Shown here piece by piece: positions 5,380 through 59,526 of a DNA stretch of 64,000 nt. The translations under genes were made by a program, and so were the position numbers. The stretch comes from an uncultured Gammaproteobacteria bacterium. Lineage in GTDB: Bacteria > Patescibacteriota > Microgenomatia > UBA8517. Location of the stretch: assembly GCA_964431555.1 (NCBI GenBank), contig CAYSJW010000009.1:10413-74412 (forward strand), written 5' to 3'. How positions within the stretch are numbered: position 1 is the first letter of the stretch; each line of letters opens with the position of its first letter. A model generated the notes under the pieces. It was not told the DNA's origin and did not search any database. It saw only the letters and a program-made list of their open reading frames with translations.

Positions 5380-5385
5380 AAGAAT

Positions 5386-10553: not shown

Positions 10554-11579
10554 ATGGAAACAAAAGAAATATTAAAAAAGGAAAATTTTAATAAAACCTC
10601 TCTTCATCCACTTCAATCTTGGGAATGGGGAGAGTTCAGAAAAGAATGGGGTAATAAAGTAGTAAGATTTCCATTTGGCCAGATAATATTTTCAAAAATT
10701 CCCTTGACAAAACTTAAAATCGGAACCTTTATAAAGGGACCAAAACCGACTCAAAAAATGATTCAAACATTAAAAAGACTAGGAAAGAAAGAAAACGCTT
10801 TGTTTATTAAATTGGAACCAAATGTAATAGTAAATTCAAAATTCAAATTTCAAGATTTAAAATTACAAACCAGAAATGAAAGAAGGATAATTAAATTATT
10901 AGAAGATAACCATTTCGTAAAAGGAAAAACACTATTTACTCCCACCTCGTTCTGGATTGATTTAACTAAATCTGAAGAAGAGCTGATGCAAAATTTCTCA
11001 AGCAAAACTCGTTACAACATTCGCTTGGCACAAAGGCATGAAGTTAAAATAACTGAGGACAATTCCGATCTCGCCTTTGAAAAATATCTTGAATTAACTC
11101 GAGAAACAGTTAAACGACAGAGTTTTTACGCCCACACTGAAAAATACCACAGATTGATGTGGAAACATTTACATAAAATCCCGATTTCAAAATCTCAAGA
11201 ACCAATCGCAAGACTTTTGACAGCTAAATATAAGGGTGAGGTCATAACAACTTGGATTGTCTTCGTCTGGAAAGACTTTCTTTACTACCCCTACGGGGCA
11301 TCTTCCTACAAGTATAAGAATGTTATGGCAAATAACCTAATGATGTGGGAGGCAATTCGCTTCGGTAAGAAACTGGGCTTAAAAACTTTTGATCTCTGGG
11401 GCAGAGAAGAAGGAAAAGGTTTCACTAAGTTTAAAGAAGGCTACAATCCGCAAATTGTTGAATTTTTGGGAAGTTGGGATCTAATAACTTCACCCTATTA
11501 CAAACTTTATAAAATTGTCGAAAGTCTTCGCTGGCAAATCCTAAGAACTAAAAACAAATTCATAAAACCAAAGTTTTAA
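10554..11579 (+). CDS. FemAB-family peptidoglycan interpeptide-bridge aminoacyltransferase (FemX/MurM-like)
   Basis: Motifs SKTRYNIRLAQRHEV, YYPYGASSYKYKN and FDLWGRE match the FemAB (PF02388) signature. Confidence 0.75.
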   Translation: METKEILKKENFNKTSLHPLQSWEWGEFRKEWGNKVVRFPFGQIIFSKIPLTKLKIGTFIKGPKPTQKMIQTLKRLGKKENALFIKLEPNVIVNSKFKFQDLKLQTRNERRIIKLLEDNHFVKGKTLFTPTSFWIDLTKSEEELMQNFSSKTRYNIRLAQRHEVKITEDNSDLAFEKYLELTRETVKRQSFYAHTEKYHRLMWKHLHKIPISKSQEPIARLLTAKYKGEVITTWIVFVWKDFLYYPYGASSYKYKNVMANNLMMWEAIRFGKKLGLKTFDLWGREEGKGFTKFKEGYNPQIVEFLGSWDLITSPYYKLYKIVESLRWQILRTKNKFIKPKF

Positions 11580-11581
11580 TC

Positions 11582-12409
11582 ATGGTCGATCTTCGCCAAA
11601 CCCCCCAATATGCAACCTTTATGAAATCAATTGGCTGGGTTGTAGAAAGAGAAAATGCTATAAATTACTTTATTAAAAAAATACCTTTTATCGGTTCATT
11701 TATAAAAATTCAACGCCCCAATAGAATTGATATAGAGCGTATCGACAATCTAATTCACAAATACAAAGCATTCCAGATTGTAATTGAGCCCAAAGACACT
11801 AATCAACAATCATTAATCACAAATTCCGGCTTTCGACAAAGCCGGATTCCCTTTATTCCCGCAAAAACTATTTATATAAATCTAACAAAATCGGAAAAAC
11901 AACTTCTCTTCGAAATGCATTCTAAAACCCGATATAACATAAAGAAAGCTACAAACAATAAACTACAAGTAACACATTCTAATAAAATAGAAGAATTTGC
12001 CGAATTCTGGCAAAAGTGTGCCTTAAAACAAAGAGGAATGTTTTTAAGCCAAAAAAAAGAAATTGTCAATCTATATAAAGCCTTTGGAAAAAACATCCAT
12101 CTTATCTTTATACACAAAAAGGGAGAAATTCTTTCAGGTGTCTTAATGCCAACCAGTAAAGAAATTGCCTACTATATGTATGCTGCCTCCTCCGATATTG
12201 GGAAAAAGCTATTTGCACCCACCCTGAATACATGGGAGGCAATAAAATTAGCCAAAGGAAAAGGATGTGAAATTTTTGATTTCGAAGGAATATTCGATGA
12301 ACGTTTTCCTTTAAAATCCTGGATTGGTTTCACAAGATTCAAGAAAAGTTTTGGTGGAACTGAAATCAAATATCCTGGAGCATTTACAAAATACTTCTTT
12401 CCTTTTTAA
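11582..12409 (+). CDS. FemAB-family aminoacyltransferase, shorter paralog
   Basis: SKTRYNIKKATNNKLQV, YYMYAASSD, CEIFDFEG. It is a tandem paralog of the upstream gene, with a 2-nt gap. Confidence 0.7.
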   Translation: MVDLRQTPQYATFMKSIGWVVERENAINYFIKKIPFIGSFIKIQRPNRIDIERIDNLIHKYKAFQIVIEPKDTNQQSLITNSGFRQSRIPFIPAKTIYINLTKSEKQLLFEMHSKTRYNIKKATNNKLQVTHSNKIEEFAEFWQKCALKQRGMFLSQKKEIVNLYKAFGKNIHLIFIHKKGEILSGVLMPTSKEIAYYMYAASSDIGKKLFAPTLNTWEAIKLAKGKGCEIFDFEGIFDERFPLKSWIGFTRFKKSFGGTEIKYPGAFTKYFFPF

Positions 12410-19176: not shown

Positions 19177-20670
19177 ATGATCGAGAAATTTATAGTTAAT
19201 CACGAAAGAGGTGTTCAAAGAGCGCTTGAAATCTTACCGGGTTTTTTTTCTTGGAACTTAATACTATTTCCTTACTGGGGAATTTTCCTAGTACCCAATT
19301 TAGTTGCCTATTTTGTGCTCGCCTTTAACATCTATTGGTTTTATCAATCTCTAACTGTTGCTTTATCCTCAATTATCTCTCACATTCGCATACAAGCTTC
19401 AATAAAATATGACTGGATTTCAGATTTAAAATCCTTTCCCGATTGGAAAAGGGTTCATCATGTGGTAATTATTACTACCTACAAAGAACCTCTTTATATT
19501 CTTGAAAGAACCATCAGATCTTTAGCAAATCAAACTTTACCAAAAGATCAAATCAGTGTATGTCTTGCAACAGAAGCGGCCGAACCGGAAGAAGAAAGAA
19601 AAAATAAAGTTAGATTATTAAAAGAAAAATTCGGAAAAATATTTAAGAATTTCATTGTAACAGTTCACACCCTCAAGCCTGGGGAAGTAAAAGGTAAAGC
19701 ATCTAACGAACGTTTTGCAGCAATTTGGGTAAAAAATTACCTAATAAACAAAAAAAGAGAAAACATAAACTACATAACAATAACCAGTTGCGACGCAGAT
19801 CATAAATATCATCCGAACCATTTTGCAGCCCTTACCTTTAAATTTCTTGATTCTCCTGAAAGATACCTACGCTTCTGGCAGGCAGCGGTCATGTTCTACA
19901 ACAACATTTGGGAACTGCCTGCAATAACTCGCGTTCCAAATACTCTCATGTCAATTTGGAACCTTTCACAACTACCCAGAAGAGATAGACTAATTAATGC
20001 TCAAAATTATTCCCTGTCTCTCAAACTTTTAGATGAAATAGGTTATTGGGATCCAGACAAAATTCCAGAGGATTGGGGAATATTCTTCAAAGCTTTTTAT
20101 CAAAAAAATGGAAAGGTTGAAGTAGAGCCAATCTACCTACCCTTATATGCAGACGCTGCACTATCAACCTCATTCTTTAAAACTCTCAAAAACCAATATG
20201 AACAAATAAAAAGATGGGCTTGGGGTGCTAGTGACGATCCTTGGATTATTAAAAATTATTTTTTAACAAAAAATGTTCCGTTTTGGGATAAAACAATGAG
20301 ACTTATTGGAGTCATCTGGGCACATTTTCTATGGCCGGTTAATTGGTTTGTTATCACGCTAGGACTCACTGTCCCCATTATCCTTAACCCAGCTTTTGGA
20401 AGAACAATATTGGGCTATACAATTCCAAAATTTTCATCTTTTATCCTCTCCATAACACTAATTTTCCTGACTTTTATGTTGATTTTAGATAACATCTACA
20501 AACCTAAAAGACCAAAAACTTTTCCTATCTGGCGAGCGGTTATCATTCCTTTAGAGTTTGTTTTAATGCCAATTGCCGGATTCTTATTTTCAGCACTCCC
20601 CGGCCTTGATGCCCATACAAGATTAATGCTTGGCAAATATATAGAATACAGAGTTACAGAAAAAGTTTAA
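19177..20670 (+). CDS. Processive family-2 glycosyltransferase (cellulose/chitin/hyaluronan-synthase-like) with flanking TM helices
   Basis: VIITTYKEP, GKASN (KAGN-like), DxD in TSCDADH, QIKRWAWG (QxxRW). TM helices at both ends. Confidence 0.65.
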   Translation: MIEKFIVNHERGVQRALEILPGFFSWNLILFPYWGIFLVPNLVAYFVLAFNIYWFYQSLTVALSSIISHIRIQASIKYDWISDLKSFPDWKRVHHVVIITTYKEPLYILERTIRSLANQTLPKDQISVCLATEAAEPEEERKNKVRLLKEKFGKIFKNFIVTVHTLKPGEVKGKASNERFAAIWVKNYLINKKRENINYITITSCDADHKYHPNHFAALTFKFLDSPERYLRFWQAAVMFYNNIWELPAITRVPNTLMSIWNLSQLPRRDRLINAQNYSLSLKLLDEIGYWDPDKIPEDWGIFFKAFYQKNGKVEVEPIYLPLYADAALSTSFFKTLKNQYEQIKRWAWGASDDPWIIKNYFLTKNVPFWDKTMRLIGVIWAHFLWPVNWFVITLGLTVPIILNPAFGRTILGYTIPKFSSFILSITLIFLTFMLILDNIYKPKRPKTFPIWRAVIIPLEFVLMPIAGFLFSALPGLDAHTRLMLGKYIEYRVTEKV

Positions 20671-20966
20671 TTTTTTAAAATAGTTATCATTAATACATTT
20701 TGTAATTGCCAAGATAAAAAATTAATAAAGTTTAAATAATTATTCTTTAAAAAAAACAATAAATTTTTAATCTGTCCCCTATTAAAGATGAAAATCCTAT
20801 AGTTTATAGCCATTTTATACGCCAAACTCCAGTTTCTTTTTTCACAGTTATCCACATTTTTTTAAATCAATGTGCAGATGTGAAAATTAGTAATTTATCA
20901 GTAGGAAGAAATTTAAAAATTCATATGTTTTTATACAATTTCGCTTTCTATTATCCAACTACTTAT

Positions 20967-21647
20967 TTAAAAATCGTAAAGCAATGGTTGATCTTCGTAA
21001 TAAATAGTCGATATCTCCTTAATGGCTTTAAAATCATTTATGGTAATTAACTTCTTGTCTACCAATATTAAATCTTTATCTTTGAGTTTTTTAAGCTCAA
21101 TGCTAGCAGTTTCTCTTGATACACCCGAAAGATTTGCAATATCACTATGCGTCTGCGGAATAGGAATTTGAATTCTATTTTCACCTACCGTCTTACCAAA
21201 TCTCCTAGCCAGTAAAACTAAAGAGGATGCCACCTTTTGAGTTGAGTTAGAACGAATCAAATATTGAGTTCTTATCATAAAACCCTCCAGACCAGAACTC
21301 ACTCTTTTTGCAAAGTCAAATAAAACATCTTTATTATTTTTGATAAATTCGTGAACTTTATGAGTAGGAGCTTTTGCAACAACAATATCAGTTACCGCTT
21401 GAAAATAGTAACTATTTGTTTTATCTGCAAGAGTCTCGGTTATCGGAATTAAATTATAAGGTTTATAAATATTAATAGTCAGCTCTAGTCAATTATCATT
21501 TAAAGAGTAAGATTTGATATATCCTGAATAAAGATTGTAAATATAGGCAAGAGGCTCTTCTGGCTTTATTAAAATCCAACTTTTGGGATATTTAAGCTTG
21601 GGATATTGCGAATAAAAATTATCTATTTTTTCCTGAACCAAATCCAT
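20967..21647 (-). pseudogene. Crp/Fnr-family transcriptional regulator interrupted by a single in-frame TGA (minus-strand codon 53, + coords 21489-21491) at a conserved Gly position
   Basis: ATG at 21647 gives MDLVQEKIDNFYSQYPKLKYPKSWILIKPEEPLAYIYNLYSGYIKSYSLNDN-TGA-LELTINIYKPYNLIPITE… (cNMP-binding beta-roll). This continues in the same frame into the ORF-track 111-aa ORF, which carries the Crp-type HTH (RETASIELKKLKDKDLI). Confidence 0.5.
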
Positions 21648-21650
21648 AAT

Positions 21651-21669
21651 TTGACACTAATTGTATCAA
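21651..21669. promoter_or_regulatory. Imperfect dyad TTGACACTAATTGTATCAA immediately upstream of the crp-like gene start (candidate Crp/Fnr-family operator)
   Basis: 7 of 9 symmetric positions (TTGA.C.A…T.G.TCAA). Lies in the divergent intergenic region between the crp-like gene and the fasciclin gene. Confidence 0.25.
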
Positions 21670-21744
21670 AACTTTGTAATCTAGCTCACTGAAATCGAAT
21701 ATTAATTAATATTATCATCTTGCTATTAGAAAGGGGGTGAAAAA

Positions 21745-22320
21745 ATGAGGCAATATTTAATTACTACCCTAATAGCAGTCATACTAGTTGGATTCGCTAT
21801 TTTCTATACGAAAGGCGTAAATTTCAACAATAATATGACTTACGAAAACGGTCTAAGAAGTCAAACAATTTCAAAAACCGAAATTAATAAAGTGCCTAAA
21901 GAAGATATGAATCAAAAACAAAATATAGTTGAAATAGCATCTTCAGATGAAAAATTTTCAACATTAGTTTCAGCAATAAAAGCTGCTGGATTGGTTGAAA
22001 TTCTTTCGTCAGAAGGACCATTTACTGTCTTTGCTCCAACCAATGAAGCATTCGCTAAACTTTCCAAAGAAACCTCAGACGCCGTCTTAGCCGATAAAAA
22101 ACAGCTAAAAAACATACTTATATACCACGTAGTTTCTGGAAAGGTTATGGCGAAAGATGTTGCAAAACTTGATTTGGCAAAGACTTTGCAAGGTGGAAGT
22201 TTAAAAATTAAAGTTACAGATGAAAACGTGATGGTGGACAATGCAAAAGTTATTAAAGCTGACATTGAAGCTGAAAACGGAGTAATTCATATAATTGATA
22301 CAGTCTTGATACCAAACTGA
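21745..22320 (+). CDS. Fasciclin (FAS1) domain protein, membrane-anchored/secreted
   Basis: N-terminal TM/signal. FAS1 motifs [14 protein letters not shown] and …HIIDTVLIP. Good SD (AAAGGGGGTG) upstream. Confidence 0.75.
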
Positions 22321-22386
22321 TACCAAAGCAATTATACAAAGAAGAATAAATAAGCCGGCTAAAAAGCCTGCTTATTTATTAGATCA

Positions 22387-22890
22387 CTAAATTTTCCTTG
22401 AATCATAAGCCCAGTGCAACAATGCTTGTCGCTGGCGACGCCTGCAGTTTAAATCCCCAGTTTTGCAGTGTTTCTTTATCTGAGCAATATGACGTTTCAT
22501 CATCTTCCAACGTTTTATCTGCCTTTGATCATCCAAACTTCTCCTACCCATATAATATCTGCAGTACCATTGAAACCAACCCCTCGGATCTTGCGGATTT
22601 ATCCATCCCTTTTTTTGCCAGACTGACAACGGCTGGCTTGCATCCACTCCGAAAAAATTAAGTTTTGGGTTTTTCTTTGCAGGAGACAATTTCGCTTTTT
22701 CGAACCAATTTTTAGGAAACTCTTTCCTACAATCCGTTATATACTTTCCACCAAAAACACCAAGCTCAAGCATTTGTTTGGGAGTTAATTCAGGTTTAAA
22801 TTCCGGATCAAAATTCTTGCCGACAGGTTCAGTCAAGTGATACTTGTAATTCTTTTGCATTTTATCATTAACAACAACTATTTTATTCAT
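22387..22890 (-). CDS. Conserved hypothetical protein, Trp-rich core (GVFGGKY…WQKKGWINPQDPRGWFQWY) and Arg/Lys-rich C-terminus
   Basis: ORF track 22387..22905. Start probably at the second Met (22890) to avoid overlap with the upstream gene. No confident family assignment. Confidence 0.4.
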   Translation of the reverse strand: MNKIVVVNDKMQKNYKYHLTEPVGKNFDPEFKPELTPKQMLELGVFGGKYITDCRKEFPKNWFEKAKLSPAKKNPKLNFFGVDASQPLSVWQKKGWINPQDPRGWFQWYCRYYMGRRSLDDQRQIKRWKMMKRHIAQIKKHCKTGDLNCRRRQRQALLHWAYDSRKI

Positions 22891-22894
22891 GAAG

Positions 22895-23647
22895 TTAATA
22901 CACAAAAGGAATTAATCTGGCAGTTTTCTTCTTATACCTTTGATATCTTTTATCACTCCCCCATTTTTTATCAGCCTTTTCCTCAAGTTTTGGAATCCCA
23001 CTTACAAAAAGTAAAAGCGCAGTAATAAAAAGTGGACTTAATAACCCTACCACTTTATAAGTATTAGGAAGTGAACTATAAACGTATAAATAAATTCCAA
23101 ACCAACACAAAATCTCTCCTAAATAATTCGGATGACGAGAATATTTCCAAAGTCCAATATCAATCCATCTATCTTTGTTACGAGGATCATTTTTAAAGGA
23201 AAACTTCTGATAATCCGCTAGTCCCTCAATTAACAAACCAATAAACCAAATTCCAAAACCCCAAAAGCTAAAGTGTCTAAAATTAGTCTCTGTCTGAAAA
23301 TAAAATAAAGTCGGAAGAAGAATCACAAAAACACTTACTCCCTGCAAAATCCAAAAACTCAAGAATTTAACAAAATCCGGTCTTATTTCATCAAAACGAT
23401 CATCTTTTTTCGTTTTATTTATTCGAATAAACAAGTACACTCCAAGTCTTATTCCCCAAACAGAAATCATTATAAGAAGAAGCAATTTGGGATACACCAT
23501 ATCGCTTTGTAAAAATGCGATCAGGGTAAGAAGAACAAAGGTTAAACTATAAGACAAATCTGTAAGTTTATCTGTTTTAAATTTGAATGCCGGTATAAAA
23601 AGAAAAAATTGTATGGCTAAACTGATTAATAACAAATTGACAATCAT
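22895..23647 (-). CDS. Polytopic membrane protein of the ICMT/DUF1295/steroid-5alpha-reductase-like superfamily
   Basis: Motif WKYSRHPNYLGEILCWFGIYL (RHPNYxGE signature) with 6-7 TM helices. Confidence 0.55.
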   Translation of the reverse strand: MIVNLLLISLAIQFFLFIPAFKFKTDKLTDLSYSLTFVLLTLIAFLQSDMVYPKLLLLIMISVWGIRLGVYLFIRINKTKKDDRFDEIRPDFVKFLSFWILQGVSVFVILLPTLFYFQTETNFRHFSFWGFGIWFIGLLIEGLADYQKFSFKNDPRNKDRWIDIGLWKYSRHPNYLGEILCWFGIYLYVYSSLPNTYKVVGLLSPLFITALLLFVSGIPKLEEKADKKWGSDKRYQRYKKKTARLIPFVY

Positions 23648-23808
23648 ACCTAATTACCTCCCTTTGACTTTCTCTTTTTTTCAAAGTCATTTTCGACAAT
23701 TACTAATGAATTCAAAAATTCATGTTATTTCTCTTTTGAGAATAGCCGCAAAATAAACACGAACATATAAGCTTTTTTTCGTATTCAAATAGTACCTTTA
23801 TATATAGT

Positions 23809-24543
23809 TTAATTTATTTGCAGATCATACAATTCCTGAATCTGAATCTTTCTCCTAATTTGCTCCTGCTCTATTTTTTCCTGTTGTTTTCTTGCCTTAG
23901 ATATCTGTCTTGAAGGATTTATTGCAACTAAGATTATTGTTGCTAAAATTCCCAAAATAGCTATTGTTGGTAAAATAAAGGCCAAAACATAAGCCAATAT
24001 CTTTTTTTCTCTGCCCATCTCCTGTTTTTGAACAACATAAGTTCCCGCTATTTTATCATGCCATGCCTGTTTTTCCCTATCCCAAATAACCCAAAGGTAA
24101 CCTAAAGAAAACACAAAGGATGATATTATTTTTCCAAAAAACTCTCTGATTATCGCCTTAGCATAGCCAATATTACCTCCTTCTTTTGAAACCACTTTTA
24201 AGTAAAAGAAGTTTTTGCCTATCGTTGTCTGATAATTGGCGATTGCCACCACCGAATAGGTCACAAATATCAATCCAGAAATCGCATCTCTTACCTCTTT
24301 ACCTGATTTATAAAAAGGGATACTTATAATTAGAATTGGAATTGCCAAAATTAATCCATCCAGTACACTTGCCGCCCATCTTACAACAAATCCTGCCTTG
24401 GGAAGCTCACTCTCGGGGAAATCAGTATTTTTATTTAATTCACCTTTTGATGATTTTGTAACCTCTTGATTTTCAGTAGTTAAAACCGAAGATAAAGGTT
24501 GAATAGCTTCTTTCAATGATTGTCTAACATCGCTTTTCTCCAT
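23809..24543 (-). CDS. RDD-family membrane protein
   Basis: FVVRWAASVLDGLI…WDREKQAWHDKIAGTYVV gives the R…D…D signature with 3 TM. Confidence 0.6.
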   Translation of the reverse strand: MEKSDVRQSLKEAIQPLSSVLTTENQEVTKSSKGELNKNTDFPESELPKAGFVVRWAASVLDGLILAIPILIISIPFYKSGKEVRDAISGLIFVTYSVVAIANYQTTIGKNFFYLKVVSKEGGNIGYAKAIIREFFGKIISSFVFSLGYLWVIWDREKQAWHDKIAGTYVVQKQEMGREKKILAYVLAFILPTIAILGILATIILVAINPSRQISKARKQQEKIEQEQIRRKIQIQELYDLQIN

Positions 24544-24665
24544 TTGATTAATTTAAACACTCCCAAGTTAAAAAGGCAACCAATTTCTGTTAAACTGAAA
24601 AATAGATGACTTAGTAACTTTTTCAAGTATATTCAATAATAATTAAAAACAACTCCAACCAAAAT

Positions 24666-26036
24666 ATGGTCGAAAATGTATTTAATCAAAGTATCTGGGG
24701 AGATGAGGGATTCAGTGCAATTCTTTCGATGAAACCTCTCCCTGAAATAATAAAAATAATTTCAAAAGATACATCACCTCCTCTATGGAACCTAACAGAA
24801 TGGTTAGTTTTTAAAACACTTGGCACAGACGAAATATATATACGCGGATTGTCGCTCTTTTTTTTCTTTGGAGCAGCAATCTTTACATATAAAATAGGGT
24901 CTTTTTGCTGGTCCAGAAAAACCGGCTTTTGGGCCTTAATATTGACCATTTTAAATCCCTTTTTCTTTATATATGCTTTTGAAGGACGAATGTATTCTAT
25001 AATGGCTTTGGGAGTTACCGCATCAAATTACTTTTTCCTTAGGATCTTTTATAACGAAGAAAAAGTTCGTCAAAGAGATAAAATCGGCTATTTTTTCTTT
25101 ACTCTCTGGGCACTTTATTCTCATCACTTTGCTATCTTCAACATCTTTATTCAAATACTTTGGTGGTTTTACGAATTAATCTTCGGAAAAAGAAATAGAG
25201 CGAAAAAAATGTTTAAATTATTTCTAATTACAGGACTAGGTTACACTCCGTGGCTAATTCCCCTTTACAACCAAACTAAGATGGTAAGTGGAGGATTTTG
25301 GCTGGGAAAACCAAATTCCAATGACCTTATCAACTTAATTTTTGACTATCTTGCCTGCGGAATTAAAAACACCAATCTTAAAATACCCATCCTAAACAAA
25401 CCCTTATACGAGATCGGCTTGTATCTGGTTTTTGCCACACTCATTCTTAGAAAATGGTGGAAAAATTTCAAAAAAACATTGTTCCAAATTTTGTGTTTTC
25501 TAGGACCAATAATTTTAACTTGGCTAATTTCTCAGAATTTTCAATCTATCTTTTTTAACAGATACCTTCTCTATACAATCCCATCAGCGATGATTATACT
25601 AGCCTCATCAAGAAGTAAGATTTCGATAGTTCCACTTTCGACTTTGGTTATACTTTTTGGAATAATTGACTATAACTACTTCACTCACCCCCAAAAATTG
25701 CCATTCAGACAGTACTCAGAGTACGTAAAGAGCCAATTAAAAGAGGGGGATTTCCTGATCAATTGGAATTCATCCTCTCATCATCTTTGGGAAACAAAAT
25801 ATTACGGAATTCCTGCACCGATATATATACCTCCTCATGGAGGGGAATTACCATTTTTTGTAGGAACTGCACTTATGGAAAAAGAAGATATTATTAGAGA
25901 AATTCCTAAAGACATAAAAAGACTTGGCGTAATCACAAGTGGACCAATTGAAGAGATTGTCCTTACAGACTATACTCAAATTAGTCTAAAAGAATTTAAA
26001 AACCTTAAATTTATCCTTTATGAAAAAAGTAAATAG
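24666..26036 (+). CDS. GT-C fold membrane glycosyltransferase (ArnT/PMT_2-like)
   Basis: N-terminal DE motif (IWGDEGFS) in the first loop. More than 10 TM. C-terminal soluble domain. Confidence 0.5.
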   Translation: MVENVFNQSIWGDEGFSAILSMKPLPEIIKIISKDTSPPLWNLTEWLVFKTLGTDEIYIRGLSLFFFFGAAIFTYKIGSFCWSRKTGFWALILTILNPFFFIYAFEGRMYSIMALGVTASNYFFLRIFYNEEKVRQRDKIGYFFFTLWALYSHHFAIFNIFIQILWWFYELIFGKRNRAKKMFKLFLITGLGYTPWLIPLYNQTKMVSGGFWLGKPNSNDLINLIFDYLACGIKNTNLKIPILNKPLYEIGLYLVFATLILRKWWKNFKKTLFQILCFLGPIILTWLISQNFQSIFFNRYLLYTIPSAMIILASSRSKISIVPLSTLVILFGIIDYNYFTHPQKLPFRQYSEYVKSQLKEGDFLINWNSSSHHLWETKYYGIPAPIYIPPHGGELPFFVGTALMEKEDIIREIPKDIKRLGVITSGPIEEIVLTDYTQISLKEFKNLKFILYEKSK

Positions 26037-27528
26037 ATTAACAAAAAAATTACACGCACCAAATTGGCTCTTATTACTCTTAGCAATAGTATTTATCTTA
26101 AGAATTCCTTCTTTTTTTGAACCATATTCATACGGAGACGAAATGATATACCTAATTTTGGGCAACGCGATTAGAATGGGAATTCCCTTATATTCAGGTA
26201 TTCACGATAATAAACCACCTCTTCTTTATATAATGGCTGCAATAGCTGGAAATCTTTTCTGGTTTAAGGCTATTCTGACTTTTTGGCTGATTATCACCAT
26301 TTATATCTTCTCTAGACTAATAAAAATTCTTTTTCCAAAAGGAAAAATTTCCCATATAATAGGAGTTTCCTTATTCGCACTCCTTGTTACCATCCCTCTT
26401 TTGGAAGGAAATATTATAAATGCCGAGCTATTTATGATAGGTCCAACAATTTTAGCTTTCTTTATCCTTCTTAAAAGAAATCCCAAACCCAAAACTCTTC
26501 TTTTTTCTGGATTTCTTTTTTCTCTATCAACGTTGTTTAAAATACCTGCCATTTTTGATATACCAGCCATTATTTTTCTCTGGATAGCAACAAAACCAGA
26601 CAAAAAAGGTGAATTTAAAACCGTAGTAAAAAATACTTTTCTTCTTTTTATCGGCTTTATCTTGCCTATCCTAGCCTCAATATTATGGTTTTACACAAGG
26701 GGAAGTTTAAAGGAATATATAACAGCAGCATTCTTACAAAATATCGGTTATCTTTCTTCCTGGAGACCCGGAGATGTAAAAGATCCTTTTTTTATCAAAA
26801 ATTTACCTTTAATTATCAGGGGATTAATTGTTTTTCTGGGATTAGCAATTCTTTATCTTAAAAGAAAATTCCTTTCCAAAAATTTTATCCTTGCAACCTC
26901 TTGGCTTTTCTTATCTCTTTTTGCCGCAACTCTTTCAGAAAGACCTTATCCCCATTATCTTATCCAGTCAGTTGCACCTTTATCCATTTTATTCACAATA
27001 CTTTTTAGTCAAAAATCCATAGAACAAGTTCTAACTATAATCCCTTTAACCATCTTTACCATCGTCCCTTTTTATTATCACTTCTGGTATTACAAAACCA
27101 TTCCTTATTATGAAAAATTCATTAAATTTTCAAAGGGTGAATTATCAAAAGAGGAGTATTTTCTTACCTTTGGGGAAGATGTTCTAAGAAACTATAAAAT
27201 TTCCGAATTTATTGTCTCTTCAACAAGAGAAAGTGAAAAAATATTCGTCTGGGGCAGTAACAATTCAACGATTTACGCGCTAAGCAAAAGGCTTCCTCCA
27301 GGAAAATATTTTGCAGATTACCACATAAAGGATTTCTCAAACGACTCAGAAACCACACAAACCCTGCAAAAGGATTTACCTTCCTTTATTGTTATTTTAC
27401 CTAACGCTCCCGAAATATCAGGACTACAAAACCTCTTATTATTAAATTATGGCCTCGTTGAAGAAATAGATAAAGCTAAAATCTGGAAACTTCTAAGTCC
27501 CAAGATAAGATCACTTATTTCCTTTTAA
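26020..27528 (+). CDS. GT-C fold membrane glycosyltransferase (ArnT-like)
   Basis: YGDEMIYLILGNAIRMG (Dex motif), polytopic, C-terminal periplasmic-type domain. Overlaps the upstream gene by 17 nt. Confidence 0.5.
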   Translation: MKKVNRLTKKLHAPNWLLLLLAIVFILRIPSFFEPYSYGDEMIYLILGNAIRMGIPLYSGIHDNKPPLLYIMAAIAGNLFWFKAILTFWLIITIYIFSRLIKILFPKGKISHIIGVSLFALLVTIPLLEGNIINAELFMIGPTILAFFILLKRNPKPKTLLFSGFLFSLSTLFKIPAIFDIPAIIFLWIATKPDKKGEFKTVVKNTFLLFIGFILPILASILWFYTRGSLKEYITAAFLQNIGYLSSWRPGDVKDPFFIKNLPLIIRGLIVFLGLAILYLKRKFLSKNFILATSWLFLSLFAATLSERPYPHYLIQSVAPLSILFTILFSQKSIEQVLTIIPLTIFTIVPFYYHFWYYKTIPYYEKFIKFSKGELSKEEYFLTFGEDVLRNYKISEFIVSSTRESEKIFVWGSNNSTIYALSKRLPPGKYFADYHIKDFSNDSETTQTLQKDLPSFIVILPNAPEISGLQNLLLLNYGLVEEIDKAKIWKLLSPKIRSLISF

Positions 27529-27601
27529 TCAATCCTCAAAAAATCAAAAAAACTATAAAATCAGAGAAAATAGTTATAAAATTGTTAAACTGGCAAAGAA
27601 C

Positions 27602-27994
27602 ATGATTAAAGGTAAAACAATAAGAATTAACAACTCCATTTCTACACCTTATAAATCTAAATTTTTGGAAAATATAGCACTGAAGAAAACAGTATACGCT
27701 GCAATATCTTTGTGTCTTCTAAATATTCTTTTTGTTATAATCTCACAAAACAACCTTCCACCAGAAGTTCCTCTCTTTTACGGATTTAGTGAGGGAGAGA
27801 AACAGTTAAGCCAAAAGTGGGGACTTTTAATCCCCGGGGCAATATCTCTGATAATAATACTATTTAATCTAATCCTCTCTGCCATGATAAAAAATAAATT
27901 TTTGAAAGAGACATTAAGTATGACTTCTTTTGTAGTTAGCTTCCTTTTCTTGATAACAGTTTTTAAAATAGTTCTTTTGGTCGGTTTTTTCTGA
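27602..27994 (+). CDS. Small membrane protein (3-4 TM), hypothetical
   Basis: ORF track. Hydrophobic helices. Located within the glycosylation cluster. Confidence 0.35.
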   Translation: MIKGKTIRINNSISTPYKSKFLENIALKKTVYAAISLCLLNILFVIISQNNLPPEVPLFYGFSEGEKQLSQKWGLLIPGAISLIIILFNLILSAMIKNKFLKETLSMTSFVVSFLFLITVFKIVLLVGFF

Positions 27995-27995
27995 A

Positions 27996-29060
27996 ATGTT
28001 AAAAATAATTAATCTCGTCGCACTACCTTTACTGGCCGCAGCATTAACCACTTTTTTTATCACTCCCACAATAATCAAAATTGCTTGGAAGATAGGAATC
28101 ATCGATGATCCTAAAAAAAATAAACATCCAAAGGTGATACACACTTACCCAACCCCTAGAGGTGGTGGTTTGGCAATCTTTTCCGGTGTAGTAGTTTCCT
28201 CTTTACTTTTTTTACCTTTGGATAAACATTCAATTGGGATCCTTTTTGGAGGACTTATTCTCAGCATCCTTGGAATTTTGGATGATAAATATAACCTACA
28301 CCCGATTGGAAGGTTAATAGTACAATTTATCGTTGCATGCTTTCCTATAGCTTCCGGTATTGGTATTGCTTATATTTCAAACCCCTTTGGAGGAATAATT
28401 GATCTTTCCCATCCTCAAATAACTTTCTCTTTTTTGGGAGATGAAAAAAGCATCTGGTTACTTTCCGATCTTTTTGCACTCTTTTGGATCGTTACCCTGA
28501 TGAACTTTATCAATATGGGCGCAAAGGGAGTAGACGGACAACTTACAGGAACGGTAATAGTTGCAGCAGCCACGATTTCCATTCTCTCTTTAAAATACAG
28601 TGCCGATATAACCCAATGGCCAGTTATCATTCTCTCATCAATTACTACAGGAGCTTATTTAGGTTTCCTTCCCTGGCACATCTATCCTCAAAAGATAATG
28701 CCTGGTTTTGGAGGATCTACTTTAGCCGGTTTTTTATTGGGTGTCTTGTCTATTCTCTCTACCACTAAAGTAGGTACTTTGATGGTGGTATTAGCAGTCC
28801 CTCTTATAGATACTTCATTTACCATTTTAAGAAGAATATTATCTGGAAAATCACCTTTTTGGGGCGATAGAGGACACCTTCATCACAAGCTTCTTGATCT
28901 TGGTTTAAGTAAAATGGGTGTTGCCTACTTTTATTGGGGGATAACAGCTATTTTAGGAGTAGCTGCCATAAATTTGAACGCCTCATCCAAGTTTTATACA
29001 ATTATTGGGGTATCAATACTCTTGGGAGGAAGCTTAATCTTGCTTACTAAGAAAAAATAA
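27996..29060 (+). CDS. Polyprenyl-phosphate N-acetylhexosamine-1-phosphate transferase (MraY/WecA/TagO superfamily; WecA/TagO-like)
   Basis: GIIDDPKKNKHPKVIHTYPTPRGGGLAI (WecA-type N-terminal motif), LGILDDKYNL, NMGAKGVDGQL, DRGHLHHKLLDLGLS (DRxHhHH motif as in WecA). Confidence 0.7.
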   Translation: MLKIINLVALPLLAAALTTFFITPTIIKIAWKIGIIDDPKKNKHPKVIHTYPTPRGGGLAIFSGVVVSSLLFLPLDKHSIGILFGGLILSILGILDDKYNLHPIGRLIVQFIVACFPIASGIGIAYISNPFGGIIDLSHPQITFSFLGDEKSIWLLSDLFALFWIVTLMNFINMGAKGVDGQLTGTVIVAAATISILSLKYSADITQWPVIILSSITTGAYLGFLPWHIYPQKIMPGFGGSTLAGFLLGVLSILSTTKVGTLMVVLAVPLIDTSFTILRRILSGKSPFWGDRGHLHHKLLDLGLSKMGVAYFYWGITAILGVAAINLNASSKFYTIIGVSILLGGSLILLTKKK

Positions 29061-30029
29061 ATGAAAAATAGCCAAAATACCACCATTTTTTTTATCGAAT
29101 TAATTAAATTAATGCGCCCCATTCATTGGATTAAAAACTTTTCAATATTCGCTGCTTTAATATTTTCTGGCAATTTATTTATATCGCAAATGTTCAATAA
29201 GGTTCTTATAGCTTTTTTTTCCTTTTGTTTCGCCTCATCTGCAACCTACGTTTTCAATGACATTTTCGATGCAAAATTAGATAGACTACACCCGATAAAA
29301 AGAAGAAGACCAATAGCTTCTGGTAAAATAAACACTGCCACCGCTAGTGTAATTATTATTATTTTAACTTCCATTTCATTATTTCTCGCTCAAAAATTAA
29401 ACACTCTTTTTTTGTTTACTCTTGTTTCGTATCTTTCGATACAAGCCACCTACTCAATGGGTCTTAAAAATTTCTACGTTGTGGACATATTAATAATCGC
29501 ATCTGGTTTTATATTAAGAGTTTACGCCGGAGCTTTTGTAATCAATTCTCATCTTTCTGTTTGGTTTCTTCTTTGCGTTATCTCAGTCGCACTTTTCTTA
29601 GCAGCTGGAAAGAGAAGGGCAGAACAGGGAACAATCCCTCAAGGAAATACACGAGTTAGTTTAACAAAATATAAAAGGGAGTTACTAAATTCTTATGTAA
29701 CTATGTTCGGCAATGCCGCATGGATGAGTTGGTCTCTCTTTACATTTTTTGAATCTCCCCCTCCCAATCTCCCCGTCTGGCTCTTTCTAGCAGAAATTTC
29801 CAGAACCACAACAATCAGTAAACTTCTCATGTTAACCATACCCGTAGTAATCTTTGGAATCATGCGTTATGAATCACTGATTTTTGAAGACAGAAGTGAA
29901 TCTCCAGAAAGCTTACTTCTTAAAGACAGGGCGTTGGTCTTTTCAGTACTTCTTTGGGTATTTATGATTGTAACTATACTTTACGGAAGCACCTCCCTAA
30001 ATTTTTTTCAAAACTTCAGAACATCTTAA
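29061..30029 (+). CDS. UbiA-family prenyl/phosphoribosyl transferase, decaprenyl-phosphate phosphoribosyltransferase (DPPR synthase)-like
   Basis: YVFNDIFDAKLDRLHPIKRRRPIASG (NDxxDxxxD + KxxRP(i/l)asG), 8-9 TM. Start codon abuts the WecA-like gene stop. Confidence 0.7.
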   Translation: MKNSQNTTIFFIELIKLMRPIHWIKNFSIFAALIFSGNLFISQMFNKVLIAFFSFCFASSATYVFNDIFDAKLDRLHPIKRRRPIASGKINTATASVIIIILTSISLFLAQKLNTLFLFTLVSYLSIQATYSMGLKNFYVVDILIIASGFILRVYAGAFVINSHLSVWFLLCVISVALFLAAGKRRAEQGTIPQGNTRVSLTKYKRELLNSYVTMFGNAAWMSWSLFTFFESPPPNLPVWLFLAEISRTTTISKLLMLTIPVVIFGIMRYESLIFEDRSESPESLLLKDRALVFSVLLWVFMIVTILYGSTSLNFFQNFRTS

Positions 30030-30922
30030 GGCGTAGGTGTTAATATCTGTGAGGGAGTAACTGACACTAATTCAATTTTCTCAGCATATTGATTGGTTAT
30101 CCACCCTTCGCTCTCATCACCAGTTTTTTCATTTACAAACTTTATTTTATACCAACCAGTCTTTTCATCCACCTCTAAAAGTTCATACTCGTTTCCCGGC
30201 TCAACTGTCCCTATTTCCTTCCCTGAAATAGACGGTTCATTCCTCACCCTCAAAAATCCTGTAGGAGTTGAAAGAATTTTAACCTTGTTTTTAATATCCT
30301 CTTCTTTAACTATTTCCTCAATATTACCAACCATCTCTTCATCCCCTCCACTTTTTTTTGCTAGTTTAACGATTGCTATAAGTTTGTAACCTTGGTAAGT
30401 TTTAATATCTATTTTTCTTTCTTGATAACCATCCATTCTTAAAATAAGCTGGTGAGGACCTGGCATTATTGATGTCGTTCTATGGGGGGTAAAGGCTCTT
30501 TCAAATCCATCGATTATAAGCTCTACCGAATCAGGAATTGATACAACAGCCAAACTTACCTGATCTTTGTCAACCTTTTCAAAAGATATTATCTCGCCAC
30601 TTGAAGTTTCCTCACTTTCTCCAAATTCTCTTCTAATTACTGTCTTGACTCCCTGTACAAGGTCAATCTTGGTTTCATAAGGAACCAAAGGTTTATCAAT
30701 TGAATCCGGAACAAGTTTTACAACAATTTCGCCCGGCTTTAGATTTTTTGGATAAGGAGTCCTCCCTACTTCCACTCCATCAATGAAAACTGTTGCCAAA
30801 GGAGTAGTTTCTATATATATTCCAGCCACCTTGGGTTTAAGAATACTGAAAACTAAATATGCAAAACCAACAAGAGAAATCAATCCTAATATAATCAAAA
30901 GTGTTATCTTGACTTTTTTCAT
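30026..30922 (-). CDS. Membrane-anchored protein with PEGA-like repeats and C-terminal bacterial SH3 (SH3b) domain
   Basis: N-terminal TM. TVFIDGVEVGRTPY (PEGA-like). C-terminal GFLRVRNEPSISGKEIGTVEPGNEYELLEVDEKTGWYKIKF (SH3_3-like). Confidence 0.5.
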   Translation of the reverse strand: MKKVKITLLIILGLISLVGFAYLVFSILKPKVAGIYIETTPLATVFIDGVEVGRTPYPKNLKPGEIVVKLVPDSIDKPLVPYETKIDLVQGVKTVIRREFGESEETSSGEIISFEKVDKDQVSLAVVSIPDSVELIIDGFERAFTPHRTTSIMPGPHQLILRMDGYQERKIDIKTYQGYKLIAIVKLAKKSGGDEEMVGNIEEIVKEEDIKNKVKILSTPTGFLRVRNEPSISGKEIGTVEPGNEYELLEVDEKTGWYKIKFVNEKTGDESEGWITNQYAEKIELVSVTPSQILTPTP

Positions 30923-45587: not shown

Positions 45588-48113
45588 CTACCAAAAAATA
45601 CGGGCTTTCAAATCCCCGCTTGGTAAGGCATTATATCTAAAATCTTTATTCTCAGTCAAGCAATCTTTATTATCAGTTTTAAAATCAACCCCATCAGGCA
45701 AATTCAAAAAAAGATCAACGGGATAATTTTTTACTCCAGATTGTTTACTTAAAAATAATCTATATTCACCTTTCTTTTCAAAATCGATTAATAATCTATT
45801 CTCCCAAATAAAAGATATTTTCCTTAATTCGTTAGGCTTTAACTCTAAATATACACCCGCTTCTTTTGTTTTTTTACCTGCAATAATATCAGGAATTAAA
45901 TACTTTTCTTCATCAACAGATTCTACTTTTACTGAAGAAAAACTTGTTTCATTACCGGCAAAAAATCTCAAGTAAACTTTATAATCTTTCTTTCCTGTAT
46001 TCTTAACATAAAAATCAAATCTACCTTTTAACACTTTCTCCTGAAAATAAATGCTCACTTTAGCCATTCTTGAAACAGAAGACGAAACTTCCCCCTCAGA
46101 TGTTTCTATCAAAGAAAAATAATCCAAGAAGCAATTTGCAATACAATCCTCCTTTAATATTTTTTTTTCTAAATCAGTTTTTAAATGATTGTTTCCTAAT
46201 CCTTGATCACTAAAGTAAATTTGGATATCCTTTTGATTAAATCCTTCATATATTTTTTTGATTATTTTTAAACCCTTATCATTTATCAAAATACCCTTAT
46301 TTACTTTATCCATTTCATTAACTAACTCATTTATAAAATTTTGATTTATAAATAATGTTCCATCAATCTTTGTCTTAAACTCCTTATTTATAAAATTAGA
46401 AACATCTAAGGCAGAATATGATATATCAGGATTCCAGTTAAACTTATCAAGGTTGGTATAACTATCTTTAAAATATTTTTTTACAACCACTGGTTTTTCA
46501 AAACTACCTAAAATTTTATTATTTAATTCATATTTGTCTTCAATTAAGAGACTGGCAATAGAAAAATTATGGAGAATAAGAAAAACAAACTTTTCTATTA
46601 CTCCCCCAGTGGGTCTCAAATACGAGTTATCTTGCAAAACTATTAAATACTTTCTTTCTCCTTCATAACCAAGCAATAAAGTTAAATTTTTTAATATATC
46701 TCCAAATTTATAACTTAAATTTTTTAATTTATTTGTTTCCGAATTGTCAAAAATAACAAATTTTCTTAAAATTTCATTATCTTTATCACTTAGGTATTCC
46801 GCTTCTAAGAAACTAATGTCTTCATATAAATCATTCATATCTATACTTATTGAATTTATATCAGAAAAATTCAATCTTTCTTTATTATTAAAAGATTTAA
46901 CAATTAAAATTAATTTTTCTAAAATACTTAAATATTCTCTATACGCTTCTGATTGAAGTTCTAAAACTAATGTGGGTTTTGTAAAAATATTATAATAATT
47001 ATCTAATAAATATATCTGTTTTAAACCATTTGAAATTTTATTAGAACATTTAGAAAAAAATAGTGACATATTTGTTGAGTATTTAGATAAATAAAAAAAA
47101 TCATTTTCATAAAAAAAATTAGATAAGTGTAAAAACGATAGCGATAATAAACATGATCCTACGGGAAATAAAAATAAAAATATAATAATACCTAAAATTA
47201 ATTTACTGGTTTTATCTAATAAAGTTTCTTTTATTTTATTAAAATAATCTTTAACCTTTGTTACAAACCCATCTTTGTATTTTTTTCTTTTTTCTTTATC
47301 TTTAAGTAATTCTTTATATACTCTATTTAATATTATTTTTGGTCTCTTTTTAATTATGATTTCCTCATCATATTTAAAAATGTTAGTATTTCTATTCTTA
47401 ATATTTAACGATTTTATATCAACACCGATAATTTCCACTAATCTATTCAACTTTATTTTTTTACCTATAATAAATACTGCTTTTCCAAAATAACTTATCG
47501 AAAATAATATTTTTATAATTAATGTAACCAAATCTTCATCCAATAAAGGATAAAAAAACTCATTACACCTTAAATTAATGTTTTTGTTTAGAACTATATT
47601 TTTTAAAACTTCATATAAATCACTTATATAAAAATCCTCGTATTTTGGTGTTATTAAATCACTGTAAAATATTACTGCACCAAATGATTTTAATTCTTGA
47701 AATTTCTTATAAATATAATCCTCATCAATACTTTTTAAATTAAAATTATTTAGTCCATTTATCAAAAATGTGGATTTTGTCTTAAAAATTTTATTTATAT
47801 ATTTATATAAATTGATGTTTTTGTTTAAACTTTTTATAAATTTATTTTTGTTCTCATACTCTTTATCTTTAAATTTATTAAAATAAATTAAATAATTTAT
47901 ATTTGTTTTATTTCTGATTAATTCCTTTATATTTTTTATAATATTAACATCATTGTTAGAATAACTATTCATTAAATCTTTTTTATCATTTTTGGTAATT
48001 AAATAAACCTTTAAGTTATAATTCAAAAGGTTCTTAATTAATAATTTGTTAATACTACTAATATCTGAAAATATTAAAATACTATTTTTCTCAGTAATTT
48101 TACTTTGTAACAT
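45588..48113 (-). CDS. Large Asn/Lys/Ile-rich membrane protein (841 aa); C-terminal part DUF4012-like (RPTGG motif), N-terminal degenerate Rossmann-like region
   Basis: Central TM (LILGIIIFLFLFPVGSCLLSLSFL). C-terminal …LQDNSYLRPTGGVIEKFVFL…. N-terminal ILIFSDISSINKLLIKNL…VYLITKND. Encoded in the most AT-rich tract of the window. Confidence 0.4.
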   Translation of the reverse strand: MLQSKITEKNSILIFSDISSINKLLIKNLLNYNLKVYLITKNDKKDLMNSYSNNDVNIIKNIKELIRNKTNINYLIYFNKFKDKEYENKNKFIKSLNKNINLYKYINKIFKTKSTFLINGLNNFNLKSIDEDYIYKKFQELKSFGAVIFYSDLITPKYEDFYISDLYEVLKNIVLNKNINLRCNEFFYPLLDEDLVTLIIKILFSISYFGKAVFIIGKKIKLNRLVEIIGVDIKSLNIKNRNTNIFKYDEEIIIKKRPKIILNRVYKELLKDKEKRKKYKDGFVTKVKDYFNKIKETLLDKTSKLILGIIIFLFLFPVGSCLLSLSFLHLSNFFYENDFFYLSKYSTNMSLFFSKCSNKISNGLKQIYLLDNYYNIFTKPTLVLELQSEAYREYLSILEKLILIVKSFNNKERLNFSDINSISIDMNDLYEDISFLEAEYLSDKDNEILRKFVIFDNSETNKLKNLSYKFGDILKNLTLLLGYEGERKYLIVLQDNSYLRPTGGVIEKFVFLILHNFSIASLLIEDKYELNNKILGSFEKPVVVKKYFKDSYTNLDKFNWNPDISYSALDVSNFINKEFKTKIDGTLFINQNFINELVNEMDKVNKGILINDKGLKIIKKIYEGFNQKDIQIYFSDQGLGNNHLKTDLEKKILKEDCIANCFLDYFSLIETSEGEVSSSVSRMAKVSIYFQEKVLKGRFDFYVKNTGKKDYKVYLRFFAGNETSFSSVKVESVDEEKYLIPDIIAGKKTKEAGVYLELKPNELRKISFIWENRLLIDFEKKGEYRLFLSKQSGVKNYPVDLFLNLPDGVDFKTDNKDCLTENKDFRYNALPSGDLKARIFW

Positions 48114-58783: not shown

Positions 58784-58785
58784 AG

Positions 58786-59460: not shown

Positions 59461-59526
59461 GGGAATTAACTGTCGGTTTTAAAAATTAAATTAAAAATTA
59501 AAACTTCCATATTTTTTGTATAAAAT

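Follow-up and report, generated by a model that had tools for sequence, protein, structure and literature searches.

A conserved Woesebacteria/Microgenomates gene module with a predicted role in extracytoplasmic pentofuranosylation of the cell envelope

The 64,000-nucleotide stretch of contig CAYSJW010000009.1 analyzed here (the window, to which all positions refer) has a GC content of ~33% and carries at positions 24666-30029 five genes on the same strand. They encode two glycosyltransferases of the GT-C type (GTC1 and GTC2), a small protein with three transmembrane (TM) segments, a WecA/TagO-like transferase (GT4) and a UbiA-family enzyme (UbiA). This module is probably a core-genome envelope-glycan operon of Woesebacteria/Microgenomates for extracytoplasmic pentofuranosylation, the sugar being likelier ribofuranose (Ribf) than arabinofuranose (Araf). 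Exact or near-exact protein matches assign the window to an 82.8-kb contig of a metagenome-assembled Candidatus Woesebacteria genome (Microgenomates). A first-pass annotation of the same DNA had listed the two GT-C, the GT4 and the UbiA open reading frames (ORFs), all four of which are present at exactly the coordinates it gave; it overlooked the fifth gene, the 130-aa ORF with three TM segments at 27602-27994. Consecutive genes share one direction and lie close together, with a 17-nt overlap (GTC1/GTC2) followed by gaps of 73, 1 and 0 nt (the last between GT4 and UbiA), and thus make up an operon-like block. The overlaps and the abutting stop and start codons indicate likely co-translation of the module genes. 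With hundreds to thousands of homologues and a mean column identity of 64-72% in the alignments, these are real genes and not chance ORFs.

The predicted function of the module depends above all on UbiA (29061..30029, + strand, 322 aa), which matches PF01040 at 83.8 bits. The motif NDxxDxxxD/KRRRPIASG that had been attributed to this protein was found at residues 66-74 (NDIFDAKLD) and 80-88 (KRRRPIASG). The former corresponds to the first Asp-rich motif of the UbiA superfamily, N-D-x-x-D-x-x-x-D, here N66-D67-I-F-D70-A-K-L-D74, and is invariant in 20 relatives. Three NCBIfam models of decaprenyl-phosphate phosphoribosyltransferases (DPPRS) matched the protein at 204.9, 197 and 150 bits (1.8e-60, 3.6e-58 and 7.9e-44), whereas the models of quinone, heme, chlorophyll and archaeal-lipid prenyltransferases reached at most 55 bits (9e-15 or weaker). 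Among PDB sequences the best match is 8j8j, Mycobacterium tuberculosis Rv3806c (E 5e-33, full length, 31% identity), and the next one stands at 4.5e-7. The NCBIfam and PDB rankings rule out the identity of a MenA/UbiA quinone prenyltransferase, and, together with the retained ligands described below, they bear out the earlier suggestion that the protein sides with DPPRS. Some of its close homologues already carry the DPPRS label in NCBI and JGI annotation.

The cryo-EM structure of Rv3806c allows this assignment to be followed to individual residues. Its Mg ligands are N73 and D77, the 5-phosphate is bound by K28, Y70 and Y157, the ribose by Q135, and the pyrophosphate by R22, K87, R90, K143 and Y138; the phosphoribose ligands are not conserved across the wider UbiA superfamily and are absent from true prenyltransferases (PMC10994848). 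In the PDB alignment N73, D77, K28, Y70, Y157 and Q135 correspond to N66, D70, K25, Y63, F150 and Q128 of UbiA, and R22, K87, R90, K143 and Y138 to R19, K80, R83, K136 and Y131. Altogether, ten of the eleven Mg and phosphoribosyl pyrophosphate (PRPP) ligands are identical and one is a Tyr-to-Phe exchange (Y157 to F150), a replacement that also occurs in some mycobacteria (PMC10994848). All of these positions are invariant in the 20 relatives, and across 30 diverse representatives with 30-50% identity most of them vary little or not at all. Judged by its sequence, the protein is a member of a divergent DPPRS clade, and the predicted activity of a PRPP:polyprenyl-phosphate phosphoribosyltransferase (PPPRS) is well supported. 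The public gene call for this locus (P0001) is only 279 aa long and begins at M44 (region 29061-29192). Since it would remove both R19 and K25, we consider the 322-aa ORF to be the correct one.

The two enzymes that would use the product of UbiA had been proposed as GT-C proteins from their DE motifs. GTC1 (24666..26036, +, 456 aa) and GTC2 (26020..27528, +, 502 aa) gave no Pfam match at E<=0.01 and nothing usable in NCBIfam, and their structures were therefore predicted. The expected assignment of the module genes by hidden Markov models (HMMs) thus held for PF01040 and PF00953, as well as for PF03816 elsewhere in the window, but not for the two GT-C proteins. AlphaFold models, each built from a 34-sequence alignment, were of good quality for both GTC1 (pLDDT 87.2, pTM 0.87) and GTC2 (pLDDT 85.7, pTM 0.87), and each shows a GT-C fold with multiple TM segments, completed by an extracytoplasmic domain at the C-terminus. 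In Foldseek searches of the PDB the best match was ArnT in both cases (5ezm with TMq 0.62 for GTC1 and 5f15 with TMq 0.56 for GTC2, prob 1.0 each), followed by ALG12, PglB, OST/STT3, AglB, AftD and PimE at prob ~1.0; AftD and EmbB ranked far below ArnT. The DE motifs themselves are conserved in the homologue alignments, D13 of GTC1 and D40 of GTC2 to >=90%, while E14 and E41 are invariant. The layout of GTC2 is canonical, with TM1 at residues 15-33 followed by YSYGDEMIY, which contains D40-E41. In GTC1, D13-E14 (in the N-terminal stretch at 24666-24710) lacks a preceding TM helix; upstream in-frame stops bar an extension of the ORF, and all 33 aligned homologues share the same N-terminal start.

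Some homologues of the two proteins reach Pfam PMT_2 (P0128 at 27.6 bits and the GTC2-like protein of locus L086) or carry PF27757, a family not in the Pfam copy used for the window scan. In the source annotations they are named GT39, mannosyltransferase or ArnT-family. Neither Arabinose_trans nor AftA Pfam domains were matched by GTC1 or GTC2. Their profiles matched no solved GT-C among all PDB sequences, nor any further GT-C-like ORF in the window, and the exact protein sequence of GTC2 was not on record in a database look-up. As profile-profile comparison detected no relation between GTC1 and GTC2, we regard them as separate families rather than as paralogues from a recent duplication. On the strength of the structure models, both belong to the ArnT/PMT_2 type of GT-C enzymes rather than to the Emb/Aft type or the O-antigen ligases, and they represent GT-C families that are missed by current Pfam and CAZy-style models. 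The donor-transferase logic of the first-pass annotation, in which UbiA makes the donor and the GT-C proteins use it, therefore survives on both counts, as UbiA does not group with MenA and the GT-C proteins are not O-antigen ligases.

GT4 (27996..29060, +, 354 aa) belongs to the PNPT superfamily of polyprenyl-phosphate HexNAc-1-phosphate transferases and matches PF00953 at 80.8 bits. The NCBIfam WecA model scored 98.6 bits against 43.8 bits for MraY, both below the equivalog cut-offs, and the housekeeping MraY was ruled out as its identity by this difference. None of the 81 homologues deviates at D96-D97 (the Mg site) or H294-L-H-H297. The loop residues N170/N173 and D180-G-Q are invariant or nearly so and form a clade-specific variant, N-x-x-N-M-G-A-K-G-x-D-G-Q. 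The family and model scores and the DD and H-x-H-H motifs agree with the earlier view of a WecA/TagO-like enzyme distinct from MraY, and GT4 would accordingly be a WecA/TagO-like polyprenyl-phosphate HexNAc-1-phosphate transferase. Its nucleotide-sugar substrate is left unassigned in view of a WecA score (98.6) that falls short of the model cut-off of 326 and of the variant loop motif.

The small protein (27602..27994, +, 130 aa) is an orphan with three TM segments and the loop motif LPPEVPLFYG-x-x-GE-x-QL, and its stop codon lies 1 nt before the start of GT4. When 81 members were scanned singly and as a profile, no match was found in Pfam, NCBIfam or the PDB. A sister lineage carries it as an N-terminal fusion to GT4 (L087:6026-7540, L097:3563-5173, L098:217-1704, L104:4992-6512, L105:5710-7218 and L107:6502-7959), and this recurrent fusion ties it to the PNPT enzyme rather than to the GT-C proteins. 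It is a probable partner, subunit or extra module of GT4, as far as gene order and fusions can tell. A flippase of the GtrA/GtcA type and a DUF1648-like protein had also been considered as candidates; neither gained support from Pfam (81 members) or the PDB, and the fusion to GT4 makes the flippase the less likely role.

To assess how far the module is conserved, one genome per GTDB species was scanned, which yielded 80 Woesebacteria/Microgenomates loci in addition to L001, a locus on a 920-kb JGI contig. Gene content was counted by ORF calling and BLAST clustering in the resulting 82 loci (81 relatives and the window). UbiA is present in 82 of them, GT4 in 81, the small protein in 79-80, GTC2 in 79, GT2 (a membrane synthase described below) in ~52-54 and GTC1 in 42. 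The core of GTC2, the small protein, GT4 and UbiA is thus kept in 79-81 of 81 species-level loci. GTC1 is accessory and GT2 is a regular operon partner, two features that the first-pass annotation had overlooked.

A wider, exhaustive HMMER survey (E<=1e-30) collected 1,566 clusters of UbiA homologues at 50% identity; gene neighbourhoods were inspected for representatives with 34-48% identity and, in addition, for 80 metagenomic loci. The four-gene core reappears on different genomic backbones at 39-48% UbiA identity (e.g. L082 and L086), and the order GTC2-like, small protein, GT4, UbiA was also seen in L086, L094, L099-L102, L106 and L108. Both L082 and L086 have a GTC2 orthologue (32-34% identity) beside the small protein, GT4 and UbiA, and one of the two is the Pfam PMT_2 match mentioned above. 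In L082 the core is flanked by MptA_B and PMT_2 GT-C genes, GtrB/ArnC-like GT2 genes, a GtrA fusion, epimerases and UDP-glucose dehydrogenase (UGDH). The adjacency of these sugar-lipid genes, which had been noted in a single genome, is therefore conserved well beyond it. Two further architectures were found. In one, UbiA is followed by two PMT/PMT_2 GT-C genes (L088, L112, L113, L115 and L120). In the other, seen in still more distant homologues, the order is UbiA-DprE1-DprE2 (L151, L157 and L158), and apparent natural UbiA::DprE1 fusions occur in metagenomic loci (L143:7401-9569 and L161:87-2294). PPPRS contexts that do not resemble those of the Candidate Phyla Radiation (CPR) lack a GT-C neighbour (L084, L090 and L091) and offer no information on this module. 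A FAD oxidoreductase (NF005560/PRK07233, 337-367 bits, above cut-off) lies beside the PPPRS homologue in two different lineages (L088:6703-7932 and L089:5636-6901); as an enzyme other than DprE1, it may oxidise the lipid-linked pentose.

The synthase gene GT2 (19177..20670, +, 497 aa) matches PF13632 at 37 bits. It has one or two N-terminal and three or four C-terminal TM segments, and its DAD, PEDW and Q-x-x-RW motifs are conserved in 52 of 56 homologues; a comparison with PDB sequences returned only spurious uS3 matches. These features fit a processive membrane synthase, and the conserved motifs and flanking TM segments uphold what had been suggested for the gene at 19.2 kb. GT2 lies directly 5' of GTC1/GTC2 or GT4 in ~52 of 81 Woesebacteria loci, as counted where the flank is long enough, and it is the upstream partner also in the distant loci L086, L087, L093, L097 and L100-L107. 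In the window a variable insert of ~4 kb (20670-24666) separates it from the module. Ahead of GTC1, this slot holds a fasciclin gene (21745-22320), an unknown ORF of 172 aa, a DUF1295 gene (22895-23647, -) and an RDD gene (23809-24543, -). In relatives it is occupied by GTC1 and/or an extended short-chain dehydrogenase/reductase (SDR) of the epimerase/dehydratase type (SDR in 27 of 81, e.g. L021:6192-7136, -). This SDR may act on nucleotide sugars or, like ORF13, as an epimerase of the lipid-linked pentose.

On the other side, UbiA converges with a gene for a PEGA and SH3_3 surface protein (30026..30922, -; PEGA 47.5 bits, SH3_3 39.1 bits), the two overlapping by 4 nt. The protein has one N-terminal TM segment. 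It adjoins UbiA in 78 of the 82 loci, window included, and also in the distant loci L086, L087 and L092-L107. It is the most conserved non-enzyme neighbour of the module, and its own sequence is poorly conserved. It may serve as a wall or glycan binder or as an acceptor.

The identity of the transferred pentose was approached through the epimerases. Phmmer searches with L151 and L157 queries detected no DprE1 (FAD_binding_4+ALO), neither in the window nor in the +/-10 kb around UbiA of the 81 related loci, and for DprE2 they gave one weak SDR match only in the same set (L076, E 6e-8). The module thus comes without an epimerase of the DprE1/DprE2 type, which makes Ribf a likelier sugar than Araf in this genome, insofar as gene content can indicate it. 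The same results speak against the arabinan or arabinogalactan-like polymer that had been proposed for this locus, as does the ArnT/PMT_2-like rather than Emb/Aft-like character of GTC1 and GTC2.

In the proposed pathway, UbiA would move 5-phosphoribose from PRPP to polyprenyl phosphate on the cytoplasmic face of the membrane to give polyprenyl-P-ribose-5-P. This step is well supported by the sequence and would resemble the reactions of Rv3806c and of Citrobacter ORF15. The 5-phosphate would then be removed and the lipid-linked pentose flipped across the membrane by other proteins. On the outer side, GTC2, together with GTC1 in about half of the species, would hand the pentofuranose to an acceptor; the fold of these enzymes is apparent from the models, and from the setting we infer their donor and acceptor. 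The conserved linkage of the genes suggests that GT4 and the small protein prime this acceptor as a glycan on polyprenyl-PP-HexNAc, and that the upstream membrane synthase GT2 primes and/or polymerises it. Possible end products are a lipoglycan, a glycoprotein and a polymer linked to peptidoglycan.

Several observations weigh against this pathway. The scores of UbiA remain below the NCBIfam equivalog cut-offs (204.9 against 234 for NF008977, and 197 against 207 for NF008978). Among the scanned window ORFs there is no phosphatase of the HAD phosphoribose-phosphatase (PRP) or PAP2 type, UbiA itself consists of the TM domain only, and neither a MATE nor a GtrA/SMR flippase was matched in the cluster or in the window; the dephosphorylation and flipping steps are thus left with no candidate in the window. 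DprE1 and DprE2 could sit elsewhere in the genome, as the search covered its 64-kb window. The backbone from RmuC, TrpR and methionyl-tRNA synthetase (MetRS) to GroEL is syntenic across Woesebacteria as well, so that conservation within the clade overstates the linkage and is only weak evidence for function. The lineage with small::GT4 fusions has a Wzy_C protein near UbiA and no adjacent GT-C. Finally, GT-C-like genes are very common in this genome, with at least four and possibly five in the 64-kb window, which makes a chance adjacency of a GT-C gene fairly likely.

The closest known systems, whose logic the module fits, are those of Kelly et al. 2024, who showed by experiment that alpha-Ribf is attached to an O antigen in the periplasm through the joint action of an ArnT-like GT-C, a MATE flippase and a UbiA-type PPPRS to which a HAD phosphatase is fused (PMC11127046). 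In Citrobacter youngae O1/O2 these are ORF15 (PPPRS-PRP), ORF14 (MATE flippase) and ORF12 (GT-C/GT136), with or without the SDR epimerase ORF13; a cytoplasmic SDR epimerase turns the donor to xylofuranose (Xylf), DprE1/E2 homologues go with Araf systems, and additional candidate systems were reported from Gram-negative as well as Gram-positive bacteria and from a phage (PMC11127046). The module shares with the Citrobacter system a UbiA-family PRPP:polyprenyl-phosphate enzyme encoded beside ArnT-like GT-C protein(s), the N/D motif with its basic residues, and optional epimerases that set the pentose, here the SDR in the variable slot of 27/81 relatives. It differs in that it has neither a HAD phosphoribose-phosphatase domain nor a MATE flippase, that GTC1 and GTC2 have no detectable sequence similarity to any solved GT-C (GT136 was not compared), and that it is coupled to a WecA-type PNPT enzyme, an orphan small TM protein and a QxxRW GT2. 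It is also part of a syntenic core genome beside housekeeping genes, in contrast to a variable O-antigen island.

The arabinan pathway of mycobacteria and corynebacteria, which uses decaprenylphosphoryl arabinose (DPA) and of which the module would be a more distant, pared-down relative, comprises Rv3806c, Rv3807c, DprE1/DprE2, Rv3789, Aft/Emb, WecA, GlfT and Lcp1. Its likeness to the window lies in an Rv3806c homologue with the substrate ligands, a WecA-like enzyme and a GT2, several GT-C genes and an LCP gene in one genome region, and a core-genome status that suggests a structural wall polymer. In contrast to it, the window has no DprE1, clear DprE2, PAP2 phosphatase or GtrA-like Rv3789; its GT-C proteins are ArnT/PMT_2-like and not Emb/Aft, its GT2 is a QxxRW membrane synthase and not GlfT-like, and the host is a small-genome CPR bacterium with ~33% GC. 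The D-arabinofuranosylation of pilin in Pseudomonas aeruginosa PA7/Pa5196 (the PsPA7_6246 cluster and TfpW) resembles the module in pairing a PPPRS with an outside GT-C and in its possible protein acceptor, and differs in having DprE1/E2 homologues and a pilin linkage, neither of which is found in this cluster. In the ArnT/ArnC pathway of lipid A aminoarabinose, in CsbB/GtcA/YfhO and in GacI/GacJ/GacK/GacL, the sugar is coupled to a lipid monophosphate in the cytoplasm, flipped across the membrane and transferred there by a GT-C, and GacJ is a small membrane protein that accompanies a polyprenyl-phosphate transferase. The module follows the same make-flip-transfer logic, both its GT-C proteins resemble ArnT most closely in structure, and its small membrane protein beside a polyprenyl-phosphate transferase recalls the arrangement of GacJ. 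However, its donor synthase is a UbiA-type PRPP enzyme instead of a GT2 acting on a nucleotide sugar, and the small protein is unrelated in sequence to GtrA, GtcA, ArnE/F and GacJ.

Three other explanations were weighed. A mycobacterial-type arabinogalactan-like polymer, in which polyprenyl-P-ribose is epimerised, the GT-C proteins build arabinan on a WecA-primed GT2 backbone and the LCP protein ligates it to peptidoglycan, would account for the homology of UbiA to Rv3806c, for the presence of the WecA-like enzyme, GT2, the GT-C genes and LCP (7400-8542) in a single window, and for AftD and Emb among the lower-ranked fold matches. We consider it very unlikely. Loci of the arabinose type keep both DprE1 and DprE2 beside UbiA or fused to it, while here DprE1 is missing from the window and from the +/-10 kb around UbiA in 81 relatives, which offer one weak SDR match; the GT-C proteins match ArnT/PMT_2 best and carry no Arabinose_trans or AftA domain. 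The LCP gene had been read as the ligase of this glycan, but it lies 16 kb from the module, is found within 10 kb of UbiA in 0/81 other loci and is never syntenic with the module, so this role has no support from synteny. It is likewise improbable that the GT-C proteins pentofuranosylate surface proteins such as pilins, S-layer-like proteins or the PEGA-SH3 protein instead of a wall polysaccharide. The assignment of GTC1/GTC2 homologues to PMT_2, with names such as GT39 or mannosyltransferase, would suit protein O-glycosylation, as would the PMT/PMT_2 pair near UbiA in L088 and L112, which adjoins genes for PilO-like and Big_13 surface proteins, and the prominence of the membrane-anchored PEGA-SH3 protein among the non-enzyme neighbours. 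A precedent exists in the arabinosylation of Pseudomonas pilin by TfpW (cited in PMC11127046). Yet this explanation leaves the near-obligatory link of PPPRS to a WecA-type PNPT enzyme and GT2, which stand for lipid-PP-linked or polymeric glycans, unaccounted for, and the module in this window contains no pilin gene.

The genes may, as a third explanation, be held together by synteny alone and share no pathway, with the GT-C proteins drawing on other lipid donors (polyprenyl-P-hexose or polyprenyl-P-aminosugar) and the PPPRS product serving elsewhere. Synteny indeed extends to the housekeeping genes RmuC, TrpR, MetRS and GroEL, GT-C-like genes abound in the window, GTC1 is dispensable (42 of 81 loci), the PPPRS homologues of L087, L089, L090 and L091 have no GT-C neighbour, and L082 has nearby GtrB/ArnC-like GT2 genes able to feed GT-C enzymes. 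We nevertheless regard co-location of this kind as unlikely, given that the four-gene core reappears on other backbones at 39-48% UbiA identity, that the overlaps and abutting stop and start codons point to co-translation, and that an independent architecture of UbiA with two GT-C genes exists. Moreover, the window encodes no other polyprenyl-monophosphate-sugar synthase, and the relation of PPPRS to GT-C has been shown experimentally elsewhere (PMC11127046). Extracytoplasmic pentofuranosylation of an envelope glycan thus remains the preferred reading of the module.

A bolder form of the pentofuranosylation reading, which we put forward tentatively and consider rather doubtful, is that Microgenomates build a core and possibly essential Ribf or 5-phosphoribofuranose envelope polymer by a minimal module of their own. 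This module would consist of GT2, a WecA-like PNPT enzyme with a new small subunit, a PRPP-dependent PPPRS and new GT-C proteins, one of them lacking TM1, and would do without a dedicated phosphatase, flippase or epimerase. If true, the CPR would gain its first defined pathway for a wall glycopolymer, which could also be an evolutionary sister of the actinobacterial arabinan pathway. Much of bacterial diversity belongs to CPR/Patescibacteria, whose envelopes are essentially uncharacterised; a full-text literature search returned no paper joining DPPRS, decaprenyl or GT-C with CPR/Patescibacteria. The pentofuranosylation reading predicts a pentofuranose-bearing surface glycan across a whole CPR class, would extend the PPPRS-plus-GT-C paradigm from a serotype-variable O-antigen decoration to a core-genome module, and brings to light a candidate new small membrane protein that would partner transferases of the WecA type. 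The set of five to six genes is compact and tractable, and UbiA can be assayed by the published PRPP/farnesyl-phosphate method. PRPP-derived lipid-linked pentoses are, as far as we know, absent from eukaryotes, and for this reason such glycans could become markers or handles to label and enrich uncultured cells.

Other features of the window include genes for MetRS, a LeuRS-type enzyme, GroEL/ES, FemAB, proteins resembling a type IV secretion system (T4SS) and the dnaA-dnaN origin region. A promoter and terminator scan of 19-31.6 kb gave the same counts as shuffled sequences, and the sole Rfam match in the whole window was a tRNA-Cys at 31562. A second envelope cluster at 2319-8542 is not syntenic with the PPPRS module. 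Three additional GT-C-like genes had been reported there. Two of them were recovered, a PMT_2 GT-C gene (3859-5379), whose TTG start, 112 nt inside the previous ORF, is probably misassigned, and a DUF2298/Chlor_Arch_YYY gene (5386-7407, 489 bits); the third is a multi-TM protein (2319-3971, 550 aa, ~11 TM segments) that matched no family. The LCP gene reported in this cluster is present (7400-8542, -; PF03816, 116.6 bits).

Further along the window, GC content falls to 0.205 at 46001-48000, within an ORF of 841 aa with a DUF4012 domain (45588-48113, -) that lies just before the rnpA-yidC-jag/dnaA-dnaN origin region (49.1-53.5 kb). Genes resembling those of type IV secretion or conjugation, among them a TraG/VirB4-like P-loop ATPase and a PrgI-like protein, occupy 56861-60516 (-), and a DnaJ + CHAP protein of 866 aa (54236-56836) adjoins them. 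Two FemAB-family genes stand in tandem at 10554-12409 and imply probable interpeptide branching of peptidoglycan, and a FemAB gene is also located 5' of the module in the distant locus L087.

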